Assembly (NCBI GenBank): GCA_963664705.1
Contig: OY761556.1
Span: 3,040,001-3,104,000, forward strand
Direction of reading: 5' to 3'
From: Acidobacteriota bacterium
Lineage (GTDB): Bacteria > Acidobacteriota > UBA6911
Length of the DNA stretch: 64,000 nt
Shown: one piece after another, positions 32,370-51,275 of the stretch
Layout: every line of letters starts with the position of its first letter
How positions within the stretch are numbered: the first letter of the stretch is position 1
Translations under genes and position numbers: made by a program
Notes under the pieces: model-generated
Database searches by the model: none
What the model was told of the DNA's origin: nothing
The model's input: only the letters and a program-made list of their open reading frames with translations

Positions 32370-32439
32370 GTTCGTACCTACCTTTAATGCAAATTATTTG
32401 ATTTATGGACCACGGCGCACCCGCAGGATGTGCCTATGC

Positions 32440-32481
32440 TCAGGTAAAGCCGGAGAAGGTATACAGATGGAAAGCGGTCAT
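32440..32481 (-). promoter_or_regulatory. leader peptide A, MTAFHLYTFSGFT-UGA (alternative ATG at 32493), upstream of the corrinoid operon
   Basis: one of four leader ORFs ending TTC TCC GGC TTT ACC TGA; conserved arm at 32411-32427; TATGCT -10-like hexamer 7 nt before the ATG. Confidence 0.75.
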
Positions 32482-32546
32482 ATTGAACAGCATAGCTTAT
32501 GGACTGAATCGTATAAGAACGACTACTCTGTAATTAATTATCGTTA

Positions 32547-32561
32547 ATGCTTGTTCCACAT
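32547..32561. promoter_or_regulatory. candidate LysR box, ATGC-N7-ACAT
   Basis: T-N11-A dyad with one mismatch to the ATGC-N7-GCAT box at 39196. Confidence 0.4.
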
Positions 32562-32595
32562 ACGGAGAAAGCCTTGCGTATAAAAATCCACGGTT

Positions 32596-34509
32596 TCATG
32601 CCTTTGGCCCCAAAAAGCGAGTGTTATCAGGCGATCGTTTTGTAATACCAACCCTGTCCAGATAATCCAGAAGCGGCAGCGCATATTTGCGGGTTGCATC
32701 GATGAGATACTTAAACTGCACGCTTTCCATCCGCTTCTCTTTTTTAATGTGCTCTGTCACCAGTTCCCTTGCTTTTTCCACGGCTTCCGTGTGGAAGTAC
32801 ATATCTCCGGCTACTCGTATAAGGCGCCCATGCTCCGTAAGGAGACGCAGAGCCTCGGCTGCCTCTTTGGTGCCCAGCCCGCAAACTTGCATAACTTCTG
32901 CCCTATCGGGCGGGCTGAATATGCGTTGCAGGAATAGAGACTCCACATCCTGCAGACGTTTCTCTTCTGCAATGTCAAATCGAACGCTGTGCGATGCAAG
33001 AAGCACGCGATCTCCTGTTTTACGAATTTTGCCTCGGGATTCGAGTTCACTCAGCAGCCTTCGAATAACAGGTTTGGGCAGCTTGGATGTGGTTTGGCAG
33101 CTCTCGATTTCCAGCCCGGGGCTGGCCGGATCCTCCCGATGATATTTGGATATCTCTTCCAGCAGTTCCTGCGATAGTCTCTCGAAAGTGTCTGCGTGGA
33201 TAGTAAGGCTTTGCTCGAGGATCATTATCTTTGCGGAGTCGGCAAGCGACTGAACTATTCCCTCTGCGCAGCGTACTGTCTTCTTAATTCTTTGGGCGAT
33301 AGCCTTGATGGTTAATGCCTGGTCTGGGACCGTGCGGATAGCATATTCAGCGAACTCCGCATCGTCTCGCACGGCTTTAGCTCGACAATGCACATCTTCG
33401 AGTACGACGGGCCTGTTTCGTTTCAGCTTTCGTTCCAGCGCTTCGATGATCACTCCACCGCCGATAGTCTGAACGGGCGATAAGCTTCGCAAGATGAAGC
33501 GGTCCATCGGACCGGCCACGATAGGTTGGCTAAGTTGCACCTGCACAAGCGCGCGCTCCCCGCCACGAGAAACATCCCCTTCGAGCGTGTATACGGTTGC
33601 GGTATTCTCCGAAGTGCCGGTATGGAATTTCACCGAAGATCCGTTCTTGAGATACAGCCCATCGAGAGCCAGCATATTCAATTCGCACAAAAATAGATTG
33701 GCCGGAGTGAACCATCCTTCCACTGTAATGACATCCCCCCGGGAAATCGTATCCTGGTCCCATTGCGGCACATTAATCGCGGCACATTGTCCGCATTGCA
33801 CCCGATCCGACTGGGTCGCATAAACCTGAATTGCTTTTATCCTTCCGGTCGAAGCCTGAGGATAAATGATCACCTGTTCTCCCAAGCCGGCGGAACCACT
33901 GACAGGTATGCCGGATACGATCGTTCCATACCCTTTTACCGAGAAGGTGCGCTCGACGGGCAAACGGAATATGCCGTCTGTCTGTTTTGGCTTCAGGTTC
34001 TGAACCAAGTTCGCAAGTCCTTCATAAAACGGCTCGAATCCTTCTCCAGTAATGTTTGAAAAGGGAAAGATCGATGCGTTTTGTAGGAATGTCCCATGAA
34101 GGTAAGTGCGGATTTCCTGAGTAACGGTTTCGACACGCTCCGGAAGGACCTTGTCCACCTTGGTCAAAACGACAACGCCGTGCTGCACACCCAGCAGCGA
34201 CAGGATGTCCAGGTGCTCCCGTGTCTGCGGCATCACGCCATCATCGGCTGCAATAACAAAGATCACGGCATCGATCCCTGTAGCCCCAGCCACCATAGTC
34301 TTGACAAAGTTCTCATGCCCGGGAACATCTACAATCCCCACCTCGAGATCGGCGATTTTCCAGGGAGCAAAACCCAGCTCTATCGACATCCCCCTTTCTT
34401 TTTCTTCTTTCAACCGGTCGGTTTCGCACCCAGTCAGGTTCCCGACCAGGGCTGTTTTGCCATGATCGATATGGCCCGCGGTTCCAAGCGTAATGTTCTT
34501 TTGATTCAT
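32596..34509 (-). CDS. selB: selenocysteine-specific elongation factor SelB
   Basis: GTAGHIDHGKT, DVPGHE, C-terminal winged helix TRKYALPLLDYLD; follows selA. Confidence 0.97.
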   Translation of the reverse strand: MNQKNITLGTAGHIDHGKTALVGNLTGCETDRLKEEKERGMSIELGFAPWKIADLEVGIVDVPGHENFVKTMVAGATGIDAVIFVIAADDGVMPQTREHLDILSLLGVQHGVVVLTKVDKVLPERVETVTQEIRTYLHGTFLQNASIFPFSNITGEGFEPFYEGLANLVQNLKPKQTDGIFRLPVERTFSVKGYGTIVSGIPVSGSAGLGEQVIIYPQASTGRIKAIQVYATQSDRVQCGQCAAINVPQWDQDTISRGDVITVEGWFTPANLFLCELNMLALDGLYLKNGSSVKFHTGTSENTATVYTLEGDVSRGGERALVQVQLSQPIVAGPMDRFILRSLSPVQTIGGGVIIEALERKLKRNRPVVLEDVHCRAKAVRDDAEFAEYAIRTVPDQALTIKAIAQRIKKTVRCAEGIVQSLADSAKIMILEQSLTIHADTFERLSQELLEEISKYHREDPASPGLEIESCQTTSKLPKPVIRRLLSELESRGKIRKTGDRVLLASHSVRFDIAEEKRLQDVESLFLQRIFSPPDRAEVMQVCGLGTKEAAEALRLLTEHGRLIRVAGDMYFHTEAVEKARELVTEHIKKEKRMESVQFKYLIDATRKYALPLLDYLDRVGITKRSPDNTRFLGPKA

Positions 34510-34533
34510 AACTTTCCGATGCGGAATACAGCT

Positions 34534-35937
34534 TTATAAAATCTGACGTAAGGCTTCGATCACGATGGAATCTTCTCCCGGCAGGAGCGTCCTTGGATCA
34601 AATAACACTTGCTCGTTTTGAATCCTCGCAATGATGGGTATTCGGTGCTGGCGCAGCCTGAGAACCAGCGTCTGCGCGGATATTACTTTTGGAGTGATCA
34701 CCAGCAGTGTTGTTTGAAGGTTCTGGTCGGGCAGAGATCCACTGCCTGTCTGCGAAAATCCCTGAACTGTTTTGATTTCTGCCTGCGGTTGGGCCTCTCC
34801 AAGTTTGGCCGCCAATGTTTCAGCAGCAACCTGAAGATCTTCCGGTTTCCGAAGAATCATCTCGAGTGTGGGAAGTTTACGTTCAGCATTTTTTGAGTCG
34901 AGGAAAAGCCTGAGAGTCGCTTCCAGAGCTGCAAGAGTCAATTTGCCTACCCGCAGAATACGCGCAAACTGGTTTTTCCGGATCGCCGCTATTAAATCCG
35001 ATCTCCCAAGGATGATCCCTCCCTGCGAAGCGCCGATCAGCTTGTCAGCACTGCTGGTTATGAGGTCCGAGCCTGCCGCGATGGATTGTGGCAACGTCGG
35101 TTCCGGTTCAAAGCCATACCTCGACATATCTACCAGGGATCCCGCACCCACATCATCGATCAGAACGAGTTTATGTTTGTGGGCGATCTGTACCATCTCA
35201 TCGAGAGGCACCTCTGAGGTGAACCCGTGGATTTTGTAATTGCTGGGATGCACTCGAAGAAGCGCAGCCGTGTTTTCCGTAATTGCCCTCTCATAGTCCC
35301 TGGCATGCGTTTTGTTCGTGGTCCCGACTTCCACCATCCGGGCGCCGCTGAAGGCCATTACGTCCGGAAGCCTGAACTCTCCACCAATTTCGACGAGCTG
35401 GCCCCTGGACACAATCACCTCCTTACCCTTCGCGATTGTGTTGAGTACAATGGAGGTTGCGGCCGCGTTGTTGTTGACAACGGTAGCGGCCTGCGCGCCG
35501 GTAAGGCGGCAAAGAAGGGTCTCAACGCCTTCATCCCTGGATGATCTTTGGCCTGAACCTAAACCGATCTGGAGCCTGGAGTATCCGGCAAGTTCCTCCC
35601 TTATCTCCTCAAGAGCTTCCTTTGCGAGTACGGCCCGGCCCAGTGCCGTGTGCAAAATTATGCCTGTGGCGTTGATCACCTTTTGATAAAACGGCCGCTT
35701 CATTGAATTCAGGGCGCCGAGAGTCTGGCTGAGGATCTCCTTGGAAATATCGCTTTTGCTCTTGTCCTTATAAGCGCCCTTTTGGATTTTGGCTCGGACC
35801 TTTTCTTTGACCTCGCGCACGGTCAGGGTAATGATTTCGGGGTTGAACCCGATGCCTGCCGATTGCAGTTCCGCTGATTTGAGTATGACGTCAACAGAAG
35901 GAAGATTTCGCAGGGCTTGATTCTCCTGGTTTTTCAT
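34534..35937 (-). CDS. selA: L-seryl-tRNA(Sec) selenium transferase SelA
   Basis: LRNLPSVD, VINATGIILHT, VNNNAAA, SRGQLVEIGGEFRLP, SADKL (PLP Lys). Confidence 0.97.
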   Translation of the reverse strand: MKNQENQALRNLPSVDVILKSAELQSAGIGFNPEIITLTVREVKEKVRAKIQKGAYKDKSKSDISKEILSQTLGALNSMKRPFYQKVINATGIILHTALGRAVLAKEALEEIREELAGYSRLQIGLGSGQRSSRDEGVETLLCRLTGAQAATVVNNNAAATSIVLNTIAKGKEVIVSRGQLVEIGGEFRLPDVMAFSGARMVEVGTTNKTHARDYERAITENTAALLRVHPSNYKIHGFTSEVPLDEMVQIAHKHKLVLIDDVGAGSLVDMSRYGFEPEPTLPQSIAAGSDLITSSADKLIGASQGGIILGRSDLIAAIRKNQFARILRVGKLTLAALEATLRLFLDSKNAERKLPTLEMILRKPEDLQVAAETLAAKLGEAQPQAEIKTVQGFSQTGSGSLPDQNLQTTLLVITPKVISAQTLVLRLRQHRIPIIARIQNEQVLFDPRTLLPGEDSIVIEALRQIL

Positions 35938-36064
35938 AGGTCCCCATTCCGGAGTTAAACATCGCTCGAACCTGCGCTATGTCGCGCAACTTCTTACAAT
36001 CAGTAGTATGAGAATTGAAATCAGATAATGGGTAGACGGCGGACCGACGTTAGCGTTGGGACAC

Positions 36065-36112
36065 TCAGGTATATCCGGAGAAGGTATGGATAGATTGTGC
36101 AGACCCGATCAC
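36065..36112 (-). promoter_or_regulatory. leader peptide B, (M)IGSAQSIHTFSGYT-UGA, upstream of selAB
   Basis: GGAG SD 7 nt before GTG; ends TTC TCC GGA TAT ACC TGA; conserved arm at 36035-36050. Confidence 0.75.
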
Positions 36113-36139
36113 AAGCAGACTCCAATTAATGGTTATCGC

Positions 36140-36169
36140 ATTATCAATCCGACCTTGCCAAACCGTCAA
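36140..36169 (-). promoter_or_regulatory. sigma70-type promoter for leader B and selAB
   Basis: TTGACG-N18-GATAAT on the minus strand. Confidence 0.55.
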
Positions 36170-36520
36170 TAGTTTTTTCAAGGGAGCAATTTTGAAATTT
36201 GGTGCCTTTTGAGGTAAGCGGGGAATGGCGGCAAAGCGAAAGGAATTGCAAAAAGGACCGAAACAAATTATCGTGACGATTCGTTGATTGGACAAGAAAG
36301 TGAGTTTGCCTTGAAAACGGCAGTTTGGAAAACCTGGGAAGGCGGTTGAGTCGCGGCACACGATGCTCGTGGCGAGTTCGCTGGATGCCGGCCCGGGAGT
36401 GGCAATGCCGTAACTGCTTTTTGATTTCATTCCGTTCCATCTCTTAGGCTGCATCACATCCCATTCACAACCACAAAGATCAGCGCGGATTGGTTCCGCC
36501 TCAATTTGTTTCCTTGCCTA

Positions 36521-38143
36521 ATGAGATCTACTATGACGATCAATATTGAGCGACGAAGACGTGCAATGCAGCGTTCTGTTCGCCTGGGGCACTGTGTGTG
36601 CGACCCCGCAAAGCCCTGCCCCTGCGACCTGTTCAAGGAAAAAGACATTTGCCTCTGTGCCGGCGAGCGGTTGGAGGCTCCGGTCGGACCTGTCGCACTG
36701 ACGCAGTTGGTGGAGAAAGCCGGGTGCGCGTCTAAAATCGATCAAGCGTTTCTTAAGGCTACGCTTAATAATTTGCCCACCTTCGATGATCCGCATGTTT
36801 TGGTGGGAATGCCCGCGGGCGATGACGCCGGCGTGTACGAAATTGGAAATGGGATGGCGTTGGTGCAAACCGTGGATGTATTCACGCCTTCTGTAGACGA
36901 CCCATACCTATTTGGTCAGGTGGCAGCGGCTAATTCCCTCAGCGATGTTTATGCTATGGGTGGACGGCCGATCACCGCATTGTCAATTGTCGGATTTCCC
37001 GTGCGCAAGGTCCCGGACAGCGCCCTTCATGAAATAATGCGCGGCGGCATAGATAAAATGAAAGAAGCTGGGGTCCCGGTCATCGGCGGCCACAGTATCG
37101 ATGACGATCAGATAAAGGCAGGCTTTGCCGTAACCGGACTCATCCAAACCGATCAGGTAGCCACGAATGCTAATGCCCAGGTCGGTGACTTGCTAATTCT
37201 GACAAAGCCGCTGGGGACAGGAATTGTGGCCTTCGCCCGGCAAATCGGACGTGCCGAGGAAGAATCGGTAGCCGCTGCCGTGCAATCAATGACAACGCTC
37301 AATAAGGCAGCGGCAGAGCAAATGGCGGCGCACAATGTTCATTCTTGCACAGATGTCACCGGTTTCGGGCTTATGGGGCACTTGTCGGAAATGGCCTTGA
37401 GGAGCGGAGTTGATATTGAACTGCTCTGGGATAGTCTCCCCTGGTTCCCTGGTGTTTTGCAATATGTTGCCGATGGCATTCTTCCGGGAGCCATCGAGCG
37501 AAACAAAGAGTCGTGCGGAGACCGCGTATTTTCCGGCAGCGGGATCAGTGAACTTATGCTGGATATGTGCTTCGATGCTCAAACTTCGGGAGGGTTGCTC
37601 ATGGTGGTCGACCCGAAAAACTCGGAAACGCTTTTAAGCGCGCTACACCTCGCAGGCATCCCGGATGCATGTGTCATCGGCAACGTCCGGCAAAAAGGCG
37701 AAGGCCGCGTCTTTCTTGAAACCAATGGGAGAAGGAGATTACCTATGTCGAAAGATCAATCCAAACCCACTCCAACGCCGCAGGAATCCGCGTGCTGTAC
37801 GGAACAGGCCCAACAAGCTTCCTGCTGCAGCCCTGAAATCCAGACTGCCGGCTGTTGCTCCGGTGAGGCAGAATCAGCCGCCGAGTCGGGCGCGGAAGCA
37901 CTCTATGGGCAGTTTCTTTCCGCGGTAGGAAAGCCCGGAAGTCTGGATGCATTCACCAAACAGGCGATCAACATTGCGTTGGCGGTGGGGACCCGATGTG
38001 AACCCTGCCTAAAAGCCCACATTCAGAAGGCAAAACAAAACGGTTTCACACCGGCCGAGATAGATGAGGCCGCGTGGATGGGGGTGGGATTCGGAGGGTC
38101 GCCTGCTCTGATGATGTATACACGATTAAAAAATAGCAAATAG
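36521..38143 (+). CDS. selD: selenophosphate synthetase SelD with N-terminal Cys-rich extension and C-terminal AhpD/CMD-like domain
   Basis: AGCASKI, DDAGVY, QTVDVFTP, ANSLSDVYAMGG, TDVTGFGLMGH, DAQTSGGLL; C-terminal RCEPCLKAH. Confidence 0.95.
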   Translation: MRSTMTINIERRRRAMQRSVRLGHCVCDPAKPCPCDLFKEKDICLCAGERLEAPVGPVALTQLVEKAGCASKIDQAFLKATLNNLPTFDDPHVLVGMPAGDDAGVYEIGNGMALVQTVDVFTPSVDDPYLFGQVAAANSLSDVYAMGGRPITALSIVGFPVRKVPDSALHEIMRGGIDKMKEAGVPVIGGHSIDDDQIKAGFAVTGLIQTDQVATNANAQVGDLLILTKPLGTGIVAFARQIGRAEEESVAAAVQSMTTLNKAAAEQMAAHNVHSCTDVTGFGLMGHLSEMALRSGVDIELLWDSLPWFPGVLQYVADGILPGAIERNKESCGDRVFSGSGISELMLDMCFDAQTSGGLLMVVDPKNSETLLSALHLAGIPDACVIGNVRQKGEGRVFLETNGRRRLPMSKDQSKPTPTPQESACCTEQAQQASCCSPEIQTAGCCSGEAESAAESGAEALYGQFLSAVGKPGSLDAFTKQAINIALAVGTRCEPCLKAHIQKAKQNGFTPAEIDEAAWMGVGFGGSPALMMYTRLKNSK

Positions 38144-38177
38144 ATCGAGCAGGCAAACAAGTTGACCTAATTCACGC

Positions 38178-38207
38178 TTGACCTTGTATTGCAGGATGCC
38201 GTAAATT
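38178..38207 (+). promoter_or_regulatory. possible sigma70 promoter for tRNA-Sec
   Basis: TTGACC-N18-TAAATT, 7 nt before the tRNA 5' end. Confidence 0.45.
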
Positions 38208-38214
38208 CATCAGC

Positions 38215-38309
38215 GGAGGTGACGGGGGCCCGGTGGCTCCCGCGGTCTTCAAAACCGTTGAGCCGCCTTTAAAGCGGCAGGTGGGTTCAACTCCCATTCG
38301 CCTCCGCCA
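38215..38309 (+). tRNA. selC: tRNA-Sec (anticodon UCA)
   Basis: 95 nt; 8-bp acceptor stem GGAGGTGA/TCGCCTCC; loop CTTCAAA with TCA at 38249-38251; long variable arm; GCCA end. Confidence 0.97.
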
Positions 38310-38341
38310 CTACCCTTTGCTTCACTCCTTATCTCCGCCAA

Positions 38342-39091
38342 TTATCTTGTTGCCCGCAAATATACTCCCTCGGTGTACCTGGATGTGGTGTATCCGGTTT
38401 TGCCGAGAATCTTAGCCGAACGAAATCCGGCTTCGCCTAGTTTCGCCAGGTAGTCCCCACCCGGCAACGCTCCGGCGATTCAGGTCGACCAGGCATCCAT
38501 GCTCGCCAATGTCTCTTCTGGAATGCTTTCTACCACCACAAGATCGGCGGCCACAAAATTTCCGTCCGGACGTAACACCCGAGCGATCTCCCTAAAGGCT
38601 TTATCCTTATCAGGGACCAGGTTTAGAACACCGTTTGAAATCACGAAATCGAATGACGCATTTTCAAAAGGCAATTCTTCAGCCGATCCCTCTTGGAAAC
38701 GAAGGTTTTGCATAGCGGTTTCCGCCCGGGCTTTGCAGGCCCAATCGAGCATTTCGGCCGTAAAATCAATGCCGAAAACCAGTCCCTCCGGCCCCGCCAG
38801 GAGCGCTGAGACAAAAGAGTCAAGACCACAGCCACAGCCGATATCAAGGACTCGCTCTCCTTTACGCACGGAACGGATGCTGAATGGATTCCCCACTCCG
38901 ACGAATCTATCCACGACATCCTTCGGAATAGTACGGATCAACTCACGAGGGTATCCAAGCCGTTCCAAGCTCTCTTGTCCGACAGGATAGGGGAACAGAC
39001 CTTCCGCCTTATGCGAAACACCTCGGTATTTGCTCTTTATGGCAGACTGCAGTCGTTCTTTCCAATTGTCAGCGAAACAATTATCCGTCAC
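38342..39091 (-). CDS. ArsM (arsenite methyltransferase)-like SAM-dependent methyltransferase, selenoprotein (Sec204, UGA at 38480-38482)
   Basis: GVGNP, VLDIGCGCGLD, SNGVLNLVPDK; W-S-T-U-IAGAL matches the ArsM WxxCIAGA motif; frame continues 45 codons to TAA; 11-bp SECIS-like stem TTGCCGGGTGG-GGA-CTACCTGGCGA starts 12 nt after the UGA. Confidence 0.88.
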
Positions 39092-39195
39092 TTAACAGGC
39101 GCTCCCGTGTTGGTTTTCACCCTATAATTCCATTACTGCCTCTAATTGTAGAATCGCTCATGCTATGATAATAATGATTTTGTTGGACAGATACG

Positions 39196-39210
39196 ATGCA
39201 GATTTCGCAT
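39196..39210. promoter_or_regulatory. LysR recognition box ATGC-N7-GCAT
   Basis: perfect T-N11-A dyad overlapping the LysR start, about 65 nt upstream of the start site implied by a TACAAT -10 (39145-39150, minus strand) of the divergent methyltransferase. Confidence 0.55.
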
Positions 39211-40131: not shown

Positions 40132-40212
40132 TACAGGGAACTCCGACGTCTCAATGGCGAGCCGAAAGAAACCGCAATCTGTTCCGCCAAGCAGTACGTA
40201 GCCGCTTCATGC

Positions 40213-40239
40213 GGCGGGCTTGATCAAACCAAGCCCGCC
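40213..40239. terminator. hairpin between convergent genes
   Basis: GGCGGGCTTG-N7-CAAGCCCGCC, 10-bp stem. Confidence 0.6.
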
Positions 40240-40252
40240 ACACAGTTGTCAC

Positions 40253-42934: not shown

Positions 42935-43032
42935 GGTCTTCTCGAATATCTTGCGATTATCTCATCGGATCTTGGATCCTTTAAGGTGGCGCTAGTCTGC
43001 CGCCTCAAGGGATCGCCGCACAAAGAACAGGT

Positions 43033-43572: not shown

Positions 43573-43683
43573 TTTGTATTCCTTGCAAATGCACTCATTG
43601 ATCACATTCAGGCAAACAAAAATGTCCGCATAATTCAGCGGGCAGCCACAGATGGCCACCCGCCGAAATAAACAGAATATCAA

Positions 43684-44787
43684 CTATTTTGCTGGTTTCT
43701 TTCCGCCGAGGCTGAAAGTCACGCCGAATTGCAGACTCATTTTATTCAGATTCCCGCTTTGCTGGGTGCCGGTAAAGTCCTTCAATATACCACCCCACAC
43801 ACGGACGGGAACTGTTAGAAAATAGGATCCAAGCTTTGTTCTCAGCGACAGGCCTGGGTTCAATGTTACAAGATATCCTGGCTGCCGATATCCCTCGGAA
43901 CCAGTCAGGACATTAAACGTCGGCACTCCCGCAATCTGGCTGCCCAAAGAGACGGAGAGCCCCTTCAAATGCGGGACAGGCGCGGACATGCCGGCATTAT
44001 ATAGATAGGAATCGGGCGTGGCGTTATAGCGCTTATTCGCCGCTACGGCGTCAGGCCCACCCGGGTTAAATGTGGACATGATTGACTGGGTATTGTTCTG
44101 CTCCTTGAAACTGAACAGATATAGAGCATTTGCATACACAGCGAAATGGCTGAACCTTCGGTATCCCTGCATTGCCACTCGGAGCCCGGCCGCACCGCTG
44201 CCAGGTTGTACGTCCGATTTTGCAGCATGGAGCTTGATATCCTGTCCCAGAATATTGGGGAACATAACCTGATAGTCCGAGTTTCCAGTAGGTAATCTGA
44301 AGGCCAACTGGAAGGCCATGTTCTGTTTTGTATTCTTTTCAGGATTGAAGAGCCATACGCGCCCGCCAATTATGGCATCACCCAGGCCTTTGGTTTTCAT
44401 TTCACGCCGTGAGCCTGCAATGGGATAGTTCCAGTAGGAATCGAGTAAGACCGGAACATCTGCGGTGATGTTGATTCTGCGGGTAAGGGCATACGCGCCC
44501 TGGAAGTTTAAGGATGTGCCACCCTGTTTTGGAGCCGCGTCCGCATTAATGAGGTCGCTCCGCAACTGGGTTCCGGTGAAGTATTGGTCGCTGTTAAACC
44601 GATTCAAACTGCCTTGAATCTGCCATTCTCCCTTTTCCAGATAGGGTCCAAGTAGGCCGCCGCTCATGGGGGCCACATTTCTTGCTAAAATTCAACCACA
44701 ACCTTGTGAAAACGCGCTCTGTGGCGCAAGCAGAGCCAGGCAAAGTGCCCACGGCACCAGCCAGCCCAGCAATTTCATCTTTGTCAT
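43684..44787 (-). CDS. exported beta-barrel protein, paralog 2, candidate selenoprotein (QG-C-G-U; UGA at 44692-44694)
   Basis: AAGGA SD; MTKMKLLGWLVPWALCLALLAPQSAFS/QGCG-UGA-ILAR; UGA is codon 32 in both paralogs; GGCC...GGCC hairpin downstream. Confidence 0.85.
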
Positions 44788-45019
44788 TTCTATTCCTTTC
44801 CATACACAGTTGTTTCAGCATTCAGAAAACCAGTTCATTTGACCAAAGCTTCCTCGCATTATGCAACAAGAAAGTTCTGCCAAATTGAGTAAGGCCAATT
44901 TCGCATACCTCCATAGGTCCGCGGCACTTTTATTGTCCGAAGGCAAATCCTAACTCAGATCTATTTTGCTCCGAAAAGCCTTGCTTCTATTCCCCTATCG
45001 GTGACACACTTATTCTGAC

Positions 45020-45061
45020 ATGAATAAAGTATTTACATCCCGCTTCTCCGGCTTCACTTGA
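45020..45061 (+). promoter_or_regulatory. leader peptide D, MNKVFTSRFSGFT-UGA, upstream of the RelE-like gene
   Basis: ends TTC TCC GGC TTC ACT TGA (synonymous variants); conserved arm CGTCGGTACGCCGTC at 45078-45092. Confidence 0.75.
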
Positions 45062-45153
45062 TAATCCTTTCCATACACGTCGGTACGCCGTCATCCTGAT
45101 TTCTCATTTTCGATAATCCAAATTGTGAGCTCATTGCAGCTGCGGAGCTTTGC

Positions 45154-45669
45154 GTGCAAGACACTGCGAAAGATAAGCCTCTTCTTATTCATCGACTCAA
45201 AACCTTTGATCGGAGCCTCGAAGAATTGCGGCACAAAGCCGGATCTGGTGAAATTGCGGCCAGCAAAGCGGAACAGCTGATTCGGCAGCTTTCGGGATCC
45301 AACGATATCAACTTGCGCAGGCAATTCAGATTTACCCGGAGTGGTGAAAACAGGATTACTTATTGTAGAAAATATGATTTGGGTTGCGGGTATCGGCTTG
45401 TATTCATCAGGAAAGGAGAGCAAATCGCCTTTCTATATGTTGGGACACATGACGACTGCTTTCGTTGGATTAGCCGAAATAGGGGATTTACCTACGAATT
45501 CGTTGATTCAATGAATAATCCCGAGCCTCCACGGCCAGAAGCTGAAACCAATCATTTCTCCGATGAACATCAATATCTTGAAACAGACGAATATGAAGAC
45601 CAGCTGATGCGCAAAATAGATGACAAAATTTTGCGGGTTGTCTTTGCCGGCCTGACAACACAGTCTTAG
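45154..45669 (+). CDS. hypothetical protein with RelE/YafQ-like core and acidic tail
   Basis: RKYDLGCGYRLVF...FLYVGTHD resembles the RelE/YafQ-superfamily C-terminus; GGAG SD before GTG. Confidence 0.6.
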   Translation: MQDTAKDKPLLIHRLKTFDRSLEELRHKAGSGEIAASKAEQLIRQLSGSNDINLRRQFRFTRSGENRITYCRKYDLGCGYRLVFIRKGEQIAFLYVGTHDDCFRWISRNRGFTYEFVDSMNNPEPPRPEAETNHFSDEHQYLETDEYEDQLMRKIDDKILRVVFAGLTTQS

Positions 45670-45779
45670 TTCAGTTTTTTGATAGAAGATACTTCATATT
45701 TGCAGCATTCAGCAACGCGTGTTTTGGACCCAATCAAATTGTACCCTCATCCCAATCCCGAGTGAAAAACCAGCCACCA

Positions 45780-45827
45780 TCCCCGTTTCCCATCCATGGG
45801 CTTATAGTCGTGGCTGGGAAACGGGGA
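45780..45827. terminator. long hairpin between convergent genes
   Basis: TCCCCGTTTCCCA...TGGGAAACGGGGA, 13-bp outer stem. Confidence 0.6.
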
Positions 45828-45845
45828 ACTGATAACAGGGCGCTA

Positions 45846-48197
45846 TTAAGCTTTACCAAGCGCTTTAAGCACCTTATCCGGCGTGGCAGGCGGGTCTACC
45901 CATTTATCAATTGCATTGTAAATGGCACAGATGATCATATGTGTGTTTGACATGGAATGGCTGATGCCGTTGGCCCCGTAGGTTCCATTGCCGGCGCGCG
46001 TTTCAACCAGACTCGTCTGTAGCTTCGGCACATCCAGCATGCCCGGTTTTTTGTACTCGATCATGTTGGTATTGAGTTTTACGCCGGTCTGCTTATCGTA
46101 GAAGTAGTCTTCAAACATCTGGCATCCCTGGCTGAAGAACGCAACCTGGTCGAGTTGCCCCTCAAGCGAAATGCGCCTGATTACTTTGCCCGAGTCCACC
46201 GCGGCTCCGTACCTCAGGATTTCCACCTCACCCGTTTCTGTATCGACAGCCACTTCGCAGTACAGAGTATTCAGTGTGTCATACTTGCTGGGCCATAGCG
46301 GTGCGGGAGGATGCCCGGCAAATGTCGCAAATACGTTTGACGAGAGACTCTTGATTGGTACCCCGGCAGTCTTGTCTGACTTGAGTACTATTTTGCCATT
46401 TACTATATCCAGGTCTTCCGGCTTCTTGCCCTTCAACGGGTTTGGAGCCGTCTTTCGCGGCGGTCCGAATCCTCCAGCCGCCGGTTTGTCCGCTTCAGCA
46501 ATCGCCGCTTCAAAAATGCGCTGTCTGAATATCTGGCAGCATTCTTTCATGACCCAACCCGTAGCTACAAGTCCGTCTGCCCCTCCGCTAATAGACACGA
46601 ACATTGCATTGGGATCATAATCAATGCTGATATCCGCAGCTTCCAGGCCGAGCTCTTCTGCGGCAATCATGGCAACGCCTTCAACAGAAAATACCCCAGC
46701 ATGGGGACCCTGGATCGGCATGTGCACAACTCCGTTCCGAAGCTCGAGCACTGCGTGAAAATCACTGCCCATTGCATGCCTTGGGCACATCTGGTATCTG
46801 AAACCGGCCCCGTGCATCCTGCCGTCAGGCAGTTTCTTTGCGCCGTTTTTATGCCAGGTCCAGTTCATCATTTTCTTTCCGGCTTCGATGCAGGCGTCAA
46901 AGCTGGGAACCGATCTTGTGTCCTTCTGTCCGTCAGGCCCATGGAGGTTCAGCCTGGCAATATCGATTGGGTCTTTCCCAAGTTTCTCGGCAATTATATG
47001 AATTGCCATAGTAACGGAGTCCCAATTGAAGGGACAAAATTGCGAACTGAATGGCATCAGACCGCGATTGCTGTCCACGATATCCATTCTCTGCCGGATG
47101 TTAAGGCATTTTGTTCCTATGTACGGTCCGTAACCCTGATCGCCAATAGTCCCGAAAAATGAATTGCCTGTAGTGCCGCCGTCGGCAATAGAGAAATCAT
47201 CGAAAGCGGTAATCAGTCCGTCCTTTGTAAATCCCACCTTCATGTGAATAAAACGCTGCTGAATCATGAAATCAAAGGTGTCCTTGCGTGTGTTTATGCA
47301 ACGCACGGGCCTTCCGGTCCTCTTTGCCAGAAGCGGCGTAATCTGCTGGGATCGTCGTATCGTCCAGTCGCAGTACTTGCCACCCTGAAAGAGCCCTTCC
47401 TGTACCGTCTTTTCCGGCGGCAGACCGTACAATTGTCCGATCGCGTTTTTGCCGCCGCTGGCGTGCCAGACAGCGCCTTCTATATGGAGATTATCTCTTC
47501 CAAGGTAAGGATCATCGAACCACCACGCTACGGAACTGTGCGGATTGGGAGAAGCGGAAGCATACGTAGGCATGTTTAGGTCGTATTCGATAATGTAATC
47601 GGCTTCCTTGAAACCTTGCTCTACATCTCCCTGGTTTTGATTTGAATAGGAAACATTCCCTTTTTTCGGAGGATTGTTATTCCCTCCCCCACCGAAAGGA
47701 TTGCTGGGACCGCCTCTATCCTCGGGCCGAATCACCGGAGCGCTGGCTTCTCTTCCCGCTTTGATATCCACGACATGCGGAAGGATTTCCCATTCCACAT
47801 TAAGTGCCTTTAAAGCCTCATCGCAGATATCTCCATTTTCCGCTACCACAATGAATCCCACTTCTATGTTTTCTTCTTCTGCAACATCGGAAATAAAAGG
47901 CTGGGGCGCACCGCCCATGCCGCCACGCTGCAGCTTTTTTAAGTCTTCATCCTTCCATGTGACGATATCCACAACTCCGGGAACAGCCTTGGCTTTTTCG
48001 AGATTGAAACTTTTTATCCTTGCGTGCGCATGAGGACTGCGCAGAAATTTGGCTTCGAGCATATTGGGAACGACATAATCGATTCCGAATTTAGCGAGAC
48101 CCGAGGCAACTGCCCATGACAGTTTGCCGGGCAGGTTTGCCCTGCCGACTACCCTGAAATCCTCTCTTTGTCCGTTAGTTCCTGTTAAATCAGCCAT
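45846..48197 (-). CDS. xanthine dehydrogenase-family molybdopterin-binding subunit (atypical active-site motifs)
   Basis: LRSPHAHARI, LAKRTGRPV, EVAVDTETGEV, VDSGKVI. Confidence 0.88.
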   Translation of the reverse strand: MADLTGTNGQREDFRVVGRANLPGKLSWAVASGLAKFGIDYVVPNMLEAKFLRSPHAHARIKSFNLEKAKAVPGVVDIVTWKDEDLKKLQRGGMGGAPQPFISDVAEEENIEVGFIVVAENGDICDEALKALNVEWEILPHVVDIKAGREASAPVIRPEDRGGPSNPFGGGGNNNPPKKGNVSYSNQNQGDVEQGFKEADYIIEYDLNMPTYASASPNPHSSVAWWFDDPYLGRDNLHIEGAVWHASGGKNAIGQLYGLPPEKTVQEGLFQGGKYCDWTIRRSQQITPLLAKRTGRPVRCINTRKDTFDFMIQQRFIHMKVGFTKDGLITAFDDFSIADGGTTGNSFFGTIGDQGYGPYIGTKCLNIRQRMDIVDSNRGLMPFSSQFCPFNWDSVTMAIHIIAEKLGKDPIDIARLNLHGPDGQKDTRSVPSFDACIEAGKKMMNWTWHKNGAKKLPDGRMHGAGFRYQMCPRHAMGSDFHAVLELRNGVVHMPIQGPHAGVFSVEGVAMIAAEELGLEAADISIDYDPNAMFVSISGGADGLVATGWVMKECCQIFRQRIFEAAIAEADKPAAGGFGPPRKTAPNPLKGKKPEDLDIVNGKIVLKSDKTAGVPIKSLSSNVFATFAGHPPAPLWPSKYDTLNTLYCEVAVDTETGEVEILRYGAAVDSGKVIRRISLEGQLDQVAFFSQGCQMFEDYFYDKQTGVKLNTNMIEYKKPGMLDVPKLQTSLVETRAGNGTYGANGISHSMSNTHMIICAIYNAIDKWVDPPATPDKVLKALGKA

Positions 48198-48255
48198 TGT
48201 ATACCCCCATGATTAATTGCAGCGCTGCGTAGGTTGCGATAATGTAATTAGATTG

Positions 48256-49299
48256 CTAAGCTAATTTTTCCAGAATCGGCTGTAATCTTGATGGCTCCAG
48301 TCCGATTGAAAAGGCGTTGATACCTTCCATAATTTTGAAAGATCCTGATTCAGACTTCGCGTCCATAATCAGTACATTCCCTCCAAAGCGTGGTTTCATA
48401 ATTCCCACACGGTGTTGAACCTGCCCAATGGTTTCAGAGTCAGTGAGGTTCTTTTCCATTAAAGACTCTATTGTGAGATCCGGCCCATTGATTGTCCGCT
48501 TATGCATATCCGCGTATACCGGCGTTTTGTTCACATCCGGAACAACGGACAGAAAGATCACTCTGGAATCAAGCACAGAAGATGTATCGCCGTTGCGATT
48601 CCGCAGCAGTCTTTGGGTTGCAATCTCAACCGGAACATAGTAAGAATCCACTTCTCTGGCCAAAGGCATCTTAAAAGCTATATATCTGCCCAGTTTTTTC
48701 GAATGGAGAACAAATTCCGGGATGCGCTTTGCAGGGTGATGGAACTGACGTCCGAAAGCAATTTCTCCGATTTCGACAACAAGAGGCTTATTGTCGGCAT
48801 CGAGAGCGACCCCAAGAATTCCATCAGGTTCGAGCTCAACGGTAAGGGCAAGCGCAACCCAGGCTTCATACCCTCTCCGAAACATTGCTGTTGTATCTAC
48901 GATAAGATCGTTTCCCACAACCCATTCAAAATCACCCTCAGGTATTTTCCCCTGAACCAGTTCAAATAGCCGGTTGTATATGAGGCGCATCATCCCTTGT
49001 TGGGGATTGTGAAGAAAGCTGGACAGATCGAGCGGCAACTGAATTTTGCAATTTAGTGTATTGGACAACCTGGTTTCAGACTCAATGTAATTTTGCGAGA
49101 GAGCGAAAATGTCCAATGCAAATGAACGGCTCCATGATTCGACGATTGCCGCTCGGACGTTGTCAAAATGCGCATAGAATCTGTCACGCCGATCTTTAGG
49201 AATGTGCACTTCATGTGGAGAAATATGGATTTCCGGGTTTGACGAAATGAATTCACTCAGAATCCCATACTCGCGTTTCCACTTTGGATCAAGAGTCAT
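48256..49299 (-). CDS. hypothetical protein inserted between the XDH-family FAD and Mo subunit genes
   Basis: 347 aa ORF; visibly more AT-rich than its neighbours. Confidence 0.65.
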   Translation of the reverse strand: MTLDPKWKREYGILSEFISSNPEIHISPHEVHIPKDRRDRFYAHFDNVRAAIVESWSRSFALDIFALSQNYIESETRLSNTLNCKIQLPLDLSSFLHNPQQGMMRLIYNRLFELVQGKIPEGDFEWVVGNDLIVDTTAMFRRGYEAWVALALTVELEPDGILGVALDADNKPLVVEIGEIAFGRQFHHPAKRIPEFVLHSKKLGRYIAFKMPLAREVDSYYVPVEIATQRLLRNRNGDTSSVLDSRVIFLSVVPDVNKTPVYADMHKRTINGPDLTIESLMEKNLTDSETIGQVQHRVGIMKPRFGGNVLIMDAKSESGSFKIMEGINAFSIGLEPSRLQPILEKLA

Positions 49300-49319
49300 A
49301 AATATCTTGTCTATGAACC

Positions 49320-49394
49320 GTCCATCGGGTCGGAATCGGAATCGAAATTAGGCTTCCAACCCCAATACCGATTCCGACCGCGAATCCGATGGAC
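49320..49394. repeat. imperfect inverted repeat containing GGAATC hexamers
   Basis: TCCATCGG-GTCGGAATCGG...CCGATTCCGAC...CCGATGGA. Confidence 0.55.
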
Positions 49395-49405
49395 ATTCTA
49401 AATGG

Positions 49406-50356
49406 TTAGACAGTTGCCAGGAGCGCTCGTTTGACGAGCGTCTTTGCGATCTGCACTTTGTACTTGGTGGCACTCAACGGCTTGGCGTCTTCAACCGCAG
49501 CCGCGCCGGCCGCTTCGGCATTGGCTTCATTGATAGCCTTGCCTGCGATCGCCGCTTCGGCCTTGACCGCGCGATACGGTTTCGGGGCAACGGCATTCAG
49601 AGCAATCCTCGGAGCTCCTCCCCCCACCATCACGGCACAGTTGACGATCGGGAAATCGATCGACTTGCGGATGGCGAATTTGAGGAAAGCGCTCTTGGCA
49701 CCGGCCGGAGGGGTCGGGACCTGGATTTCGGTGATGAATTCGCCGGCAGCGAGAACGGTGTTGCCGGGGAATTTGACATCAAAGAAATTCTCGGCATTGA
49801 TCTTGCGCGTGTTGGTCACCACGGAGGCATTCAAAGCAATGAGAGCCGGGGCGACGTCGCTGGGATGAACGGCGATGCATTTGTTGACGTTGCCGAAGAT
49901 GGAGTGATAGCGGTTGTCGCCCATCATAGCAAAGCAGGTTGTGCCACCCTTGCGGACGCAAGGGAACCGGTTTTCCGGCTTCCGGAAGTACCAGCAGCGG
50001 TGGAGCTGAGCGATGTTGCCGCCGATGGTGCCCATGTCGCGGACATGGGGCGTGGCGACGCGCAGAGCTGCCTGAGCCAGAGCGGTGTATTTCGCATTGA
50101 TGTCCTTGTTGGCTGCGACATCCGCAAGGCGTGTGGCGGCGCCGATTTTCAGGATACCGGCTTCTTCCTTGATGTAATCGAGACCCGGGGTAACGGTCTT
50201 GATGTTAATCACGGCTTCGGGGTACGTGGGAAGGATGTTGTCCTTGAGCCGGCCGATGAGATCGGTGCCCCCGGCAATGATTTCTGTTTTTCCGCCGGCA
50301 AGGGCAGTTTTGACCTCGGCCAGGGTTTTTGCATTCGTATGATTGAAACCTTTCAT
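49406..50356 (-). CDS. xanthine dehydrogenase-family FAD-binding subunit (PaoB/YagS-like, with 4Fe-4S insert)
   Basis: IAGGTDL, MGTIGGNI, RCWYFR...C..KGG..C...C insert. Confidence 0.92.
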   Translation of the reverse strand: MKGFNHTNAKTLAEVKTALAGGKTEIIAGGTDLIGRLKDNILPTYPEAVINIKTVTPGLDYIKEEAGILKIGAATRLADVAANKDINAKYTALAQAALRVATPHVRDMGTIGGNIAQLHRCWYFRKPENRFPCVRKGGTTCFAMMGDNRYHSIFGNVNKCIAVHPSDVAPALIALNASVVTNTRKINAENFFDVKFPGNTVLAAGEFITEIQVPTPPAGAKSAFLKFAIRKSIDFPIVNCAVMVGGGAPRIALNAVAPKPYRAVKAEAAIAGKAINEANAEAAGAAAVEDAKPLSATKYKVQIAKTLVKRALLATV

Positions 50357-50368
50357 GAGTGTCTCCTC

Positions 50369-51091
50369 CTATGCCTTGCCCATAGCCTGAGCTGCTTCCA
50401 TAATTGCGGTAGGATGCCGCGGGTAGGTTCCACAGCAGCAGATATTGCCGGCGAGAGCCTGTTTGCAGTCATTCTCGGTCGGATTGGGATTCTTCTGCAG
50501 CAGAGCCTTGGCCGAAACGACGAAGCCCGGAGTGCAGTAGCCGCACTGCATCGCGTCCCACTTGCAGTAGGACTGGATGAGGGAGCGCCATTTGGGATCG
50601 GCGGCAATTCCTTCGACGGTCTCGATGGATTTGCCCTCGCATTCGACCGCCAGGGTCGAGCAGGAGAGGACGGTTCTGCCGTCAATGTTCACGGAGCAGG
50701 AACCGCATACGCCGCGGTCACACATCTGCTTGGCTCCGGTAAGACCGAGTTTGAACTGCAGAGTGCGCTGAAGGGTCCAGTGCGGCTCGATGAGGACTTC
50801 GTACTCCTTGCCGTTCACCTTGAGTTTGGTAGCAACAGGGAGCGCATATCCGGGATGTGCCTGGGCGAAGTGGGTTTTCAATCCGCCATACGTGTTAAAA
50901 TCTTTTGCGCAGACCGGGCACTTGAAGTTGGTGATGGTCGTGGGAGCTTCTGCGGCAGCCGCAGCAGCCGCTTCGGTGGACAGGGTAAGGCCTGCTCCCA
51001 GAGTGCTGCCGGCTACAACAGCGCCTGCACTTTTAAGAAAATTTCTTCGATTCAGTCCTGTTCCTTCGTTGATAATTGTTTCATCTGCCAT
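50369..51091 (-). CDS. xanthine dehydrogenase-family 2x[2Fe-2S] subunit with Tat signal and C2H2-like finger
   Basis: NRRNFLK; CPVC-x12-H-x4-H; CDRGVCGSC; QCGYCTPG; NICCCG. Confidence 0.93.
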   Translation of the reverse strand: MADETIINEGTGLNRRNFLKSAGAVVAGSTLGAGLTLSTEAAAAAAAEAPTTITNFKCPVCAKDFNTYGGLKTHFAQAHPGYALPVATKLKVNGKEYEVLIEPHWTLQRTLQFKLGLTGAKQMCDRGVCGSCSVNIDGRTVLSCSTLAVECEGKSIETVEGIAADPKWRSLIQSYCKWDAMQCGYCTPGFVVSAKALLQKNPNPTENDCKQALAGNICCCGTYPRHPTAIMEAAQAMGKA

Positions 51092-51233
51092 GGCAGGTCC
51101 TCCTTAAGATTATTTGCCATCGCGTATCTAAACGCATACGCAAAGGACAGCCAGCCGAACTTGGGTGGCCTGGGAAAATCAAACCGCATTTTTAGGAAAG
51201 TGAATGACGACGTACCGGCGTTTCTTAGTGCGT

Positions 51234-51275
51234 TCAGGTAAAGCCGGAGAACTTATAGCGTGGGATTCTATTCAT
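51234..51275 (-). promoter_or_regulatory. leader peptide C, MNRIPRYKFSGFT-UGA, upstream of the molybdoenzyme operon
   Basis: ends TTC TCC GGC TTT ACC TGA; conserved arm CGCCGGTACGTCGTC at 51206-51220. Confidence 0.75.

Follow-up and report, generated by a model that had tools for sequence, protein, structure and literature searches.

Four Leader Cassettes and the Genes behind Them

The window, the 64,000-nt stretch of DNA analysed here, contains four copies of a two-part motif, in which an open reading frame of 13-15 codons ending in F-S-G-F/Y-T-UGA is followed by a 15-nt element. Leader A (32440..32481, minus strand) begins with ATG and spans 13 codons, MTAFHLYTFSGFT, with its stop TGA at 32442-32440; Leader B (36065..36112, minus strand) begins with GTG and spans 15 codons, (M)IGSAQSIHTFSGYT, with its TGA at 36067-36065. 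Leaders C (51234..51275, minus strand; MNRIPRYKFSGFT) and D (45020..45061, plus strand; MNKVFTSRFSGFT) are again ATG-initiated frames of 13 codons closed by TGA. The next in-frame stop is TAG in A, one codon past the TGA, and TAA in B, C and D, after four, two and zero codons, respectively, that of B abutting the second block. The 15-nt blocks of B (36036..36050, minus strand; ACGUCGGUCCGCCGU, of the form RCG-Y-CG[GKN]CG-Y-CGU), C (51207..51221, minus strand; ACGCCGGUACGUCGU) and D (45077..45091, plus strand; ACGUCGGUACGCCGU) are joined by a divergent one in A (32412..32426, minus strand; CUGCGGGUGCGCCGU), which fits GCG-GGUG-CGC and not the canonical 15-mer. The initial annotation had reported these coordinates and readings, a non-UGA stop within 0-4 codons, a GGTnCGyCGT motif 17-20 nt past each UGA and a gene 70-142 nt downstream, all of which agree with our measurements: the spacers are 18, 19, 17 and 20 nt, and the following gene starts 70, 127, 142 and 92 nt past the TGA, for A, B, C and D.

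A chance origin of the motif in the window is excluded, since the pattern TTCTCCGGNTWYACYTGA gives four matches against 0.06 expected and none of 100 shuffles gets to four; the two-part pattern with GGTNCGYCGT gives four against 0.00 expected. When the 6.9-Mb genome was scanned, the two-part motif appeared only four times, always in the window. The pattern scan added a single one-mismatch match that lacks the TGA, and a sequence model at E<=0.01 recovered the same four copies and no others.

Leader A precedes an operon of corrinoid-protein, MtaA-like and RACo genes (26846..32369, minus strand), which encodes an MtbC-like corrinoid protein (31692-32369), an MtaA/CmuA-like methyltransferase (30637-31695), a 292-aa protein to which no family is given (29735-30613), an MtaA-like protein (28672-29682) and a RACo-type corrinoid activase (26846-28672), all on the minus strand; an ortholog with a leader is found in a second genome. 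Behind B lie selA2 (34534-35937) and selB2 (32596-34509), a second, divergent set of Sec synthesis and delivery genes (32596..35937, minus strand). A SelD of the Cys type belongs to the second Sec set of the window; the main SelD depends on Sec. Behind C is a TAT-2Fe2S/FAD/Mo-hydroxylase operon (45846..51091, minus strand) with a TAT-signal 2Fe-2S subunit (50369-51091), a FAD subunit (49406-50356), a 347-aa protein to which no family is given (48256-49299) and a Mo-binding large subunit of the xanthine-dehydrogenase family (45846-48197), each on the minus strand; this leader-gene pairing recurs in six more copies elsewhere among relatives. The corrinoid, selA-selB and molybdoenzyme assignments made earlier stand, but the "RelE-like" gene behind D (45154..45669, plus strand) encodes 171 aa of no recognised family, with only a sub-threshold ParE_like match (E 0.007, 16.8 bits versus a cut-off of 24.4). 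We note that a neighbouring gene in the same island codes for a selenium-metabolism-associated LysR-type selenoprotein.

Among the window copies, only Leader B has a Shine-Dalgarno-like GGAG with a promoter-like site further upstream (36169-36140, minus strand; TTGACG-18-GATAAT). In cassette C, a sigma-70-type promoter is predicted from the sequence (51287..51316, minus strand; TTGTTT-N18-CATACT), and its -10-like element ends 11 nt 5' of the ATG, so the leader C mRNA is predicted to lack a Shine-Dalgarno and to carry next to no 5' UTR. This promoter and near-leaderless ATG layout is conserved among related copies.

Conservation of the Leader across the Genus

Across the genus (30 genomes), the sequence model recovers 41 copies, which are spread over 19 genomes. 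An ATG lies exactly 13 codons 5' of the stop in 27 of the 41 copies, and in 36 an in-frame ATG falls 9-19 codons ahead of the UGA. In those 27 copies, entropy over codons 9-13 is higher at position 3 than at positions 1 and 2 (for the Gly codon, 1.43 versus 0 and 0.23); the Ser of FSGFT is written TCC, TCA or TCG, or gives way to Ala or Thr, and all four Gly codons are used. The concentration of variation in third positions, taken with the fixed position of the ATG, argues that the leader ORF is translated. Judged by codon-position entropy in relatives, the ORF is under coding selection, as had been proposed from the window alone, and the start codon and frame, whose non-conservation would have spoken for a mere DNA or RNA motif, are both conserved among relatives.

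The stop is TGA in 41/41 copies, against a baseline of 35% of stops in 3854 long frames of the window's genome; replacement by UAA or UAG, named beforehand as evidence against a role for the UGA, occurs in none. A second in-frame stop follows within five codons (0-4 codons between) in 39 of the 41, compared with 0/41 and 1/41 in the other two frames and 15% after ordinary long frames of the window's genome. This frame-specific second stop argues that the UGA is truly decoded. The cassette order is therefore a promoter-like site, an almost leaderless ATG, about 13 codons to F-(S/A/T)-G-F-T, the UGA and a back-up stop 0-4 codons on. The comparison shows this putative leader to be a portable cassette set ahead of selenium uptake, Sec-synthesis and other selenium-linked operons.

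The Element Past the UGA

The element, with consensus RCG-Y-CG[GKN]CG-Y-CGU, starts about 14 nt past the UGA and presents its GGU at 17-20 nt. The authentic Sec sites of the window's genome (n=4) have loops GGUCU, GGU, GGGU and UGGUA at +18 to +20, and the placement in the leaders is thus SECIS-like. In the bacterial SECIS model as quoted in PMC13188914, the loop is 3-9 nt and opens with G and then G/U, the spacing is 16-37 nt and a stability of -7.5 kcal/mol is required. The leader element satisfies the loop and spacing rules of that model, and only 13 of the 41 copies reach its -7.5 kcal/mol within 40 nt past the UGA. In stability, the motif past the UGA falls short of the model.

The 15-nt hairpin itself has very little stability, with a median of -0.9 kcal/mol and values from -2.0 to +0.8 over the 35 canonical copies. 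A paired reading of the element fits 97.5% of 200 cells, including 21 G-U and one G-C to A-U double change. Covariation is not above shuffles (339-365 of 500 match the observed values), a comparison with little power because the element is so highly conserved. Folded singly, the four window copies do no better than shuffles (z -1.2 to +1.3), and the MFE folds of the 41 copies differ among themselves, with no common fold. Recognition by SelB is not known to need as much as 14 nt of conserved sequence, so something else may read the element.

In another reading, the 15-bp ACGnCG-N3-CGnCGT would be a DNA operator for a dimeric regulator, for example the neighbouring selenium-associated LysR-type selenoprotein, and would act as a roadblock about 60-70 bp past the transcription start, with the ORF separate or accessory. 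The dyad symmetry at the DNA level, the conservation of sequence rather than structure and the selenium-associated LysR gene of the island fit such an operator, yet we regard it as improbable. The asymmetries of the element are strand-specific: a pyrimidine at positions 4 and 12 (both mismatch positions), a conserved G-K centre, and A/G at position 1 versus an almost invariant T at 15 (17 G-U cells). The LysR box is T-N11-A, which the element does not match. The spacer to the UGA, moreover, is kept in length, and its sequence differs in 39/41 copies, and an operator leaves the invariant UGA and the frame-specific second stop unexplained.

Coding selection and a UGA with SECIS-like placement, which suggests Sec incorporation, would also be expected of small selenopeptides, M-x7-FSGFT-Sec-x0-4, that function as products and not as cis-acting sensors. 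We hold this to be very improbable: the stretch past the UGA, 0-4 residues long, shows no conservation (none, A, TH, VSQR and others), paralogues have dissimilar N-terminal halves, each of the copies stands right before an operon with a promoter-like site of its own, and one genome carries four paralogues ahead of unrelated operons.

Output and Comparison with Known Systems

Between leader and gene, none of the window leaders (n=4) has an intrinsic terminator-like site, and in the six copies that precede the Mo-hydroxylase operon the sequence leading to the gene is not conserved; the classical attenuation proposed earlier is not borne out. Just past the element, the first 20 nt are 30% C and 8% G (38 copies) in a genome of 53% G+C. 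TnaC of the tna operon undergoes an RF2-dependent stall at a UGA stop, coupled to Rho-dependent termination. The leaders resemble it in their shortness, conserved C-terminal residues, obligatory UGA and the G-poor tract soon after, and they could likewise be arrest peptides, in which the FSGFT chain and a small selenium compound, sensed in place of Sec-tRNA, would block RF2 at the UGA, the element and G-poor tract would be used by Rho or some other factor, and the SECIS likeness would be incidental. The conserved C-terminal residues and RF2-specific stop, a hairpin too weak for the SECIS model, the likeness of the tract to a Rho loading site and the lack of intrinsic terminators all point this way. 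We nevertheless consider it unlikely, because the frame-specific back-up stop of 39/41 copies would be superfluous without readthrough of the UGA, the GGU is exactly at the authentic SECIS loop distance, and the tract is only about 30 nt long, with just 39 nt from element to next start codon in copy A. Unlike TnaC, the leaders have a fixed-distance SECIS-like element, a frame-specific back-up stop and a putative selenium regulon.

In the trpL, hisL and pheL leaders, a ribosome on a short ORF gauges how much of one charged tRNA is available and thereby sets operon expression. The Sec leaders, proposed to be short translated reporters of the same kind, differ in having one recoded stop in place of a regulatory codon run and no terminator/antiterminator pair found at the window leaders; their signal would be whether SelB or RF2 acts on the UGA. 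The E. coli selAB 5' UTR, as described in PMC13449736 (Thanbichler and Bock 2002, EMBO J 21:6925), holds an untranslated SECIS-like element 3 nt from the selA Shine-Dalgarno that represses initiation directly. The likeness is a SECIS-like RNA ahead of selA-selB whose proposed reader, in feedback on the Sec machinery, is SelB loaded with Sec-tRNA; the leader element differs in following, at SECIS distance, the UGA of a 13-codon ORF that is translated, in lying behind a UGA 31-363 nt from the called gene start, in preceding many non-sel operons and in its far weaker hairpin. For Treponema primitia fdhF(Sec), PMC3892789 describes translation-coupled transcription with the UGA inside the selenoprotein gene itself. 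There, as proposed for the leaders, a ribosome at a Sec codon reads selenium supply and the amount of downstream RNA changes (PMC3892789); here the UGA belongs to a mini-gene of its own, which would control other genes. Neither Rfam, with which comparison had been suggested, nor literature searches yielded a description of such a leader, and a putative Sec-codon leader sensor is a kind of gene switch that we could not find in print.

Putative Regulon and Proposed Mechanism

The 41 leaders stand before genes or operons for TonB-dependent receptors (9), Mo-hydroxylase operons (7), SelA (4), a 353-aa family of no assigned function (4), corrinoid proteins (2), BzdQ-like activases (2), short unknown ORFs (2) and, once each, YedE, YedF, TusE/DsrC, an ABC ATPase and an MvhD-like protein. 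The genes predicted to be under leader control are a selenium set in 19 genomes, which extends to relatives the association seen in the window. Five genomes have a second selB, and all five have a leader upstream of it, immediately before selA in four and, in the fifth, before a TusE/DsrC-like gene, with selB broken; this recurrence points to feedback logic. The MvhD-like putative target itself looks like a selenoprotein, and control could run in either direction. Leaders common in genomes without Sec machinery were named in the initial annotation as evidence against its proposal; selB is present in every leader-bearing genome, but it is also present in 127/137 genomes of the class, so leader-selB co-occurrence is uninformative and without power.

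We give somewhat better than even chances to the reading that the copies are translated leader mini-genes, closed by Gly-Phe-Thr-UGA, that act as Sec-decoding sensors. The Sec-tRNA/SelB-sensing leader proposed at the outset keeps its support from coding selection, the invariant UGA, the back-up stop, the SECIS distance and the selenium genes, and loses attenuation and SECIS stability. While the UGA occupies the A site, the element would be just outside the ribosome, at the place of a SECIS, and would recruit SelB-GTP-Sec-tRNA(Sec). Were this complex plentiful, Sec would be inserted and the ribosome would end immediately on the back-up stop. We note that Sec insertion would advance the ribosome by just 0-4 codons, which counts against the sensor reading. 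Were the complex scarce, the ribosome would dwell on the UGA, where RF2 is predicted to be slowed by the conserved G-F-T at the end of the nascent chain, and dwell time near the 5' end would set operon expression. The output would more likely take a generic route, by 5'-end mRNA protection or Rho at the G-poor tract, than a dedicated terminator. Our best guess is that the waiting ribosome would protect or open the message, and that selA2-selB2, the uptake genes and the other operons would go up when Sec is short.

Four leader copies and their distribution

The four short ORFs of the window that end in F-S-G-F/Y-T-UGA, leaders A (32481-32440, -), B (36112-36065, -), C (51275-51234, -) and D (45020-45061, +), have the coordinates and readings that the initial annotation assigned to them. 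The four copies are genuine, and chance cannot account for them: the coding block TTCTCCGGNTWYACYTGA matches four times in the window versus 0.06 expected, none of 100 shuffles reaches four, and the block joined to GGTNCGYCGT matches four times versus 0.00 expected, with TGA-to-GGT spacers of 18, 19, 17 and 20 nt. The whole 6.9-Mb genome contains these four copies only, along with one 1-mismatch match that lacks the TGA. Gene annotation also bears out the neighbors first proposed, namely, a corrinoid protein/MtaA-like/RACo operon downstream of A, selA-selB downstream of B, and a TAT-2Fe2S/FAD/Mo-hydroxylase operon downstream of C. The gene behind D, originally called RelE-like, is present and encodes 171 aa, but its match to ParE_like is sub-threshold.

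Among the 51 genomes of the order, a strict pattern detects the motif in 8, which belong to a single genus. A sequence-only covariance model trained on 14 copies, a search of relatives that had been suggested at the outset, recovers 41 copies in 19 of the 30 genomes of the genus; a copy typically consists of a promoter-like site, the leader ORF and its UGA, a back-up stop and a conserved element, together termed the cassette. When the search is extended to 137 class genomes, the model gains a single true copy, MKEVRSLSDFSGFT-UGA, from another family (G127), and one false hit, in G131. The true copy, the only one found outside the genus (locus L090, 1484-1560), precedes an ORF (1626 onward) with a signal peptide, directly after which stands a UGA with a long frame continuing behind it. 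Because selB is nearly everywhere (30 of 30 genus genomes, 29 of them over the family cut-off, and 127 of 137 class genomes), the co-occurrence of leader and selB is uninformative. The class tallies take in one unpublished genome, G046, which has no leader match and on which no other result rests.

A wider scan of one genome per species with the pattern TTCACCTGA-N12-22-CGYCGGKNCGYCGT returned 48 loci, 21 of which end in G-F-T-UGA, with an ATG 11-23 codons upstream in 19 of the 21. All 21 are in records of Acidobacteriota, Acidobacteria, Terriglobia, Terriglobales or Sulfopaludibacter, and most are from the same genomes as in the genus search. The remaining 27 do not resemble leaders; most of them come from other phyla, in genomes rich in G+C. 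The gene yedE is present in 8 of 401 sampled genomes of the phylum; the flanks of these eight loci (at most ~1.5 kb per side) contain no GGN-TWY-ACN-TGA word on either strand.

A translated leader ORF that ends at UGA

An in-frame ATG lies 9-19 codons before the UGA in 36 of the 41 copies, and exactly 13 codons before it in 27. Among these 27, the third position is the most variable one at codons 9-13 (0.88, 1.43, 1.43, 0.88 and 0.50 bits), with positions 1 and 2 at 1.23 bits at most and often at 0. All four Gly codons are used across copies, Ser appears as TCC, TCA or TCG or gives way to Ala or Thr, and the upstream Arg, His, Tyr and Pro codons vary synonymously as well. The tail itself is nearly invariant (G 40/41, F 40/41 with Y in copy B, T 41/41, TGA 41/41). 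This coding signature, taken with the conserved start and length, shows by comparative sequence criteria that the leader is a short translated ORF, as had been proposed.

Upstream of the leaders, a promoter-like pair is conserved (CTTGnn, 17-18 nt, CATACT-like). The -10-like pentamer, found in 23 of 26 copies, ends only 7-13 nt before the ATG, and an SD-like 4-mer occurs in the last 20 nt before the ATG in just one of 26. Given the closeness of the -10 to the ATG and the near absence of an SD, the leader message is predicted to be nearly leaderless.

The claimed dependence on UGA is upheld, in that a stop codon used by 35% of the 3854 long open frames of this genome (TAG 34%, TAA 31%) closes every leader in frame with the conserved ORF. 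A second in-frame stop follows within five codons in 39 of 41 copies, compared with 0/41 and 1/41 in the other two frames and 15% after ordinary long frames. These second stops (TAA 19, TAG 15, TGA 7) come after 0, 1, 2 or 4 codons and, by eye, directly abut the element (UAR-CGYCGG) in about 15 copies. The copies are related, so the back-up-stop counts are non-independent events; despite this relatedness, both where the second stop falls and which codon it is vary from one gene context to another. A back-up stop confined to one frame would serve a purpose only if ribosomes regularly continued in frame beyond the UGA. The leader UGA is special and is probably decoded.

A SECIS-like element behind the UGA

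The conserved 15-nt element (RCG-Y-CG-GKN-CG-Y-CGU) is divergent in copy A. Of its 35 canonical copies, 34 begin 11-16 nt beyond the UGA and one begins 20 nt beyond it. The transcribed element can fold into five pairs that flank a Y-Y mismatch and are capped by a G-K-N triloop. Pairing is kept in 97.5% of 200 cells; these include 21 G-U cells, and one double change turns G-C into A-U. Covariation in the element is no better than in shuffles, 339-365 of 500 controls reaching the same scores, because the sequence hardly varies. Two other structures were tried: a 3-bp hairpin in the element, superseded by the five-pair form, and an RNAalifold helix from 14 copies that paired CGGC/ACC of the coding block with GGU/GYCG of the element. 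The latter was dropped because the coding block changes among the 41 copies (TCA-GGA, TCG-GGT, GCG-GGC) without a matching change in the element. Single-sequence folds yielded no stable RNA structure beyond that of shuffles.

The dyad symmetry of the element also allows it to be read as a DNA operator. Three features of the element are asymmetric with respect to the sense strand and favor RNA: each of the two mismatch positions is a pyrimidine, the center is a conserved G-K, and A/G at position 1 stands opposite U at position 15.

As quoted in PMC13188914, the bacterial SECIS consensus has an in-frame UGA directly upstream, a 3-9-nt apical loop in which either the first or the second position is G, mostly with G/U next to it, a UGA-to-apical-loop spacing of 16-37 nt, an upper stem of 4-16 bp, and a minimum free energy of -7.5 kcal/mol or lower. 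The RNA reading of the element agrees with this consensus in the in-frame TGA of all copies, in the loop of the proposed hairpin (GUU, GUA, GUC, GUG, GGC, GGU or GGA), and in the spacing, the GGU of the four window copies starting 17-20 nt after the UGA. Its stem of five pairs interrupted by the Y-Y mismatch is borderline, and its energy falls short: the 15-mer hairpins of the 35 canonical copies have a median of -0.9 kcal/mol and span -2.0 to +0.8, and no more than 13 of the 41 copies get down to -7.5 kcal/mol in the 40 nt that follow the UGA. Four authentic Sec sites of this genome, those of FdhA, SelD1, an ArsM-like methyltransferase and a LysR-type regulator, have loops GGUCU, GGU, GGGU and UGGUA that begin 18-20 nt after the UGA, in hairpins of -14.9 to -29.3 kcal/mol over 60 nt. 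Because the hairpin is so weak and breaks the energy rule, we term the element SECIS-like and stop short of classing it as a true SECIS; SelB binding and Sec insertion are putative. The back-up stop lends indirect support to the notion that the element may direct Sec insertion.

Comparison with Rfam 15, another check raised in the initial annotation, gave no match in the window at gathering score, tRNAs aside; the four leader loci had no match at E<=1, and 20 related loci had none at E<=0.01. At L053, L060, L061 and L071, loci from four genomes, the ~130 nt between the leader and a 248-379-aa gene are well conserved and G+C-rich and have no match in Rfam; this region may be a second structured RNA element.

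Genes behind the leaders

Across all 41 copies, the downstream genes are TonB-dependent receptors in nine, 2Fe-2S or Mo subunits of xanthine-dehydrogenase-family operons in seven, selA in four, a family of 248-379 aa without assigned function (the 353-aa family) in four, and other unknowns in three. Short unknown ORFs, whose leaders resemble those of the TonB receptors, account for two copies, as do a corrinoid protein and a BzdQ-like acyl-CoA dehydratase activase. YedE, YedF, a TusE/DsrC-like protein, an ABC-transporter ATPase, an MvhD-like gene, a transglutaminase-like gene and the ParE-like gene of copy D follow one leader each, and the last copy lies at a contig end with no gene behind it. 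Genes for selenium uptake and for Sec synthesis are clearly represented in this set, in keeping with the selenium link first suggested.

The MvhD/VhuD-like gene (L075, 600-1393, -) carries a UGA in the G-U-x-x-G-x-C-H position, as well as one non-UGA stop after codon 52 in the assembly; it is possibly a selenoprotein under leader control. The FeS and FAD genes of operon C (49406-51091) have 94-99% identical paralogues on the chromosome contig (C1:6002104-6002823 and 67974-68663) that lack a leader, and the regions upstream of these paralogues do not align with cassette C. A short stretch upstream of the 6.0-Mb paralogue resembles the 3′ part of the element plus the bases that follow, and it is possibly a decayed cassette.

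Two Sec systems

The genome has two complete Sec systems, one in the window (32596-38309) and one elsewhere on the chromosome (C1:3657373-3659256, 3461774-3463159, 2046792-2047721 and 6559014-6559112). The latter is the main set, and its SelD is itself a selenoprotein. The window set consists of selA2-selB2, a Cys-type SelD (G-C-A-S-K) fused to an AhpD-like (AhpD/CMD) domain, and a second tRNA-Sec; selA2 and selB2 are 40% and 34% identical to the main copies, and the set as a whole is 34-44% identical. Five genomes of the genus carry a second selB (G000, G002, G007, G012 and G020), and each of the five has a leader upstream of that gene: in four the leader immediately precedes selA, and in G012 it precedes a TusE/DsrC-like gene, with a broken selB. 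As 14 other genomes have leaders with a single selB, the leaders are independent of the second SelB. A stand-by set that needs no Sec and is controlled by a leader would fit induction when Sec is short.

Two genes with in-frame TGA codons lie beside the window set. A selenium-metabolism-associated LysR-type regulator (39196-40113, +), itself a selenoprotein, has TGA at 39892-39894, codon 233, with a hairpin loop UGGUA behind it, so the full-length regulator would need Sec. The ArsM-like gene (38342-39091, -), which matches NCBIfam models of methyltransferase selenoproteins, has TGA at 38482-38480, codon 204, followed by a strong hairpin. Separately, a 72-nt tRNA-like gene (C1:1625651-1625722, -; L158 352-423) with a predicted UCA anticodon is called "SeC" by ARAGORN and, across positions 4-67, reaches 43 bits with the general tRNA model of Rfam; if functional, it would read UGA.

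Output and proposed mechanism

The initial annotation described a translated, UGA-dependent, selenium-linked leader that works by attenuation. The leader part is supported; attenuation of the classical kind is not, since none of 18 terminator-like sites at 32000-51600 lies between any window leader and its gene. The gap between element and start codon in copy A is just 39 nt. The leaders contain a single UGA and no repeated codon, that is, no run of codons for a sensed amino acid. Six aligned Mo-hydroxylase copies revealed no conserved output structure, being conserved only at "CAUUU" and the Shine-Dalgarno region. The lack of terminators, the unconserved stretch to the gene in these six copies, and distances of 31-363 nt from the UGA to the called gene start favor a generic output route. 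Behind the element begins a G-poor, C-rich tract of ~30 nt (G 8%, C 30% over 20 nt, 38 copies).

We propose that SelB-Sec-tRNA would compete with RF2 at the leader UGA, that the G-F-T nascent end may slow RF2, and that the signal would be ribosome dwell time. Two candidate outputs are protection of the nearly leaderless message by the waiting ribosome and access of Rho to the G-poor tract. The leader-controlled genes would, at a guess, be on under Sec shortage; this direction is less settled because one regulated gene resembles a selenoprotein. The full reading is that a portable promoter/leader/mini-SECIS cassette acts as a Sec-decoding sensor, in which a race between SelB-Sec-tRNA and RF2 at one UGA, biased by G-F-T and a deliberately weak SECIS, sets a selenium-starvation regulon. 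The regulon would include a stand-by selA2-selB2, beside the Cys-type SelD and second tRNA-Sec, able to restart selenoprotein synthesis once the cell has lost the means to produce the main, Sec-dependent SelD. We put this reading forward tentatively and give it slightly less than an even chance.

Relation to known systems and significance

Classical leader-peptide attenuators and TnaC are close known systems. The former combine a short translated leader ORF with terminator/antiterminator hairpins and a run of codons for the sensed amino acid; the cassette shares the leader ORF but has neither a terminator/antiterminator pair nor repeated regulatory codons. TnaC-type leaders have a conserved C-terminal peptide, an obligatory UGA and a Rho loading site beside the stop codon, and the cassette shares the first two in its G-F-T tail and its invariant TGA. 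We rate the cassette as belonging with the ribosome-mediated leader sensors. Full-text searches of the literature gave no description of a UGA-ending leader of such a kind, and a 2026 review of prokaryotic selenoproteomes does not contain the words "leader", "upstream" or "SECIS-like". Also among the closest known systems are the untranslated SECIS-like site of Escherichia coli selAB (PMC13449736) and the translation-coupled transcription of Treponema primitia fdhF(Sec) (PMC3892789).

How bacteria sense their selenium status is little understood; in the literature consulted, the untranslated SECIS-like site of E. coli selAB is the single bacterial cis-element described. If the proposal is true, Sec decoding itself would be the measurement, made by a leader mini-gene, which would account for the co-ordination of uptake with Sec synthesis and possible backup enzymes. 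The cassette would provide a sequence signature for selenium-linked genes of unassigned function, such as TonB receptors, the corrinoid methyltransferase operon, Mo-hydroxylases and the 353-aa family, and it would be a compact natural part for Sec-responsive expression.
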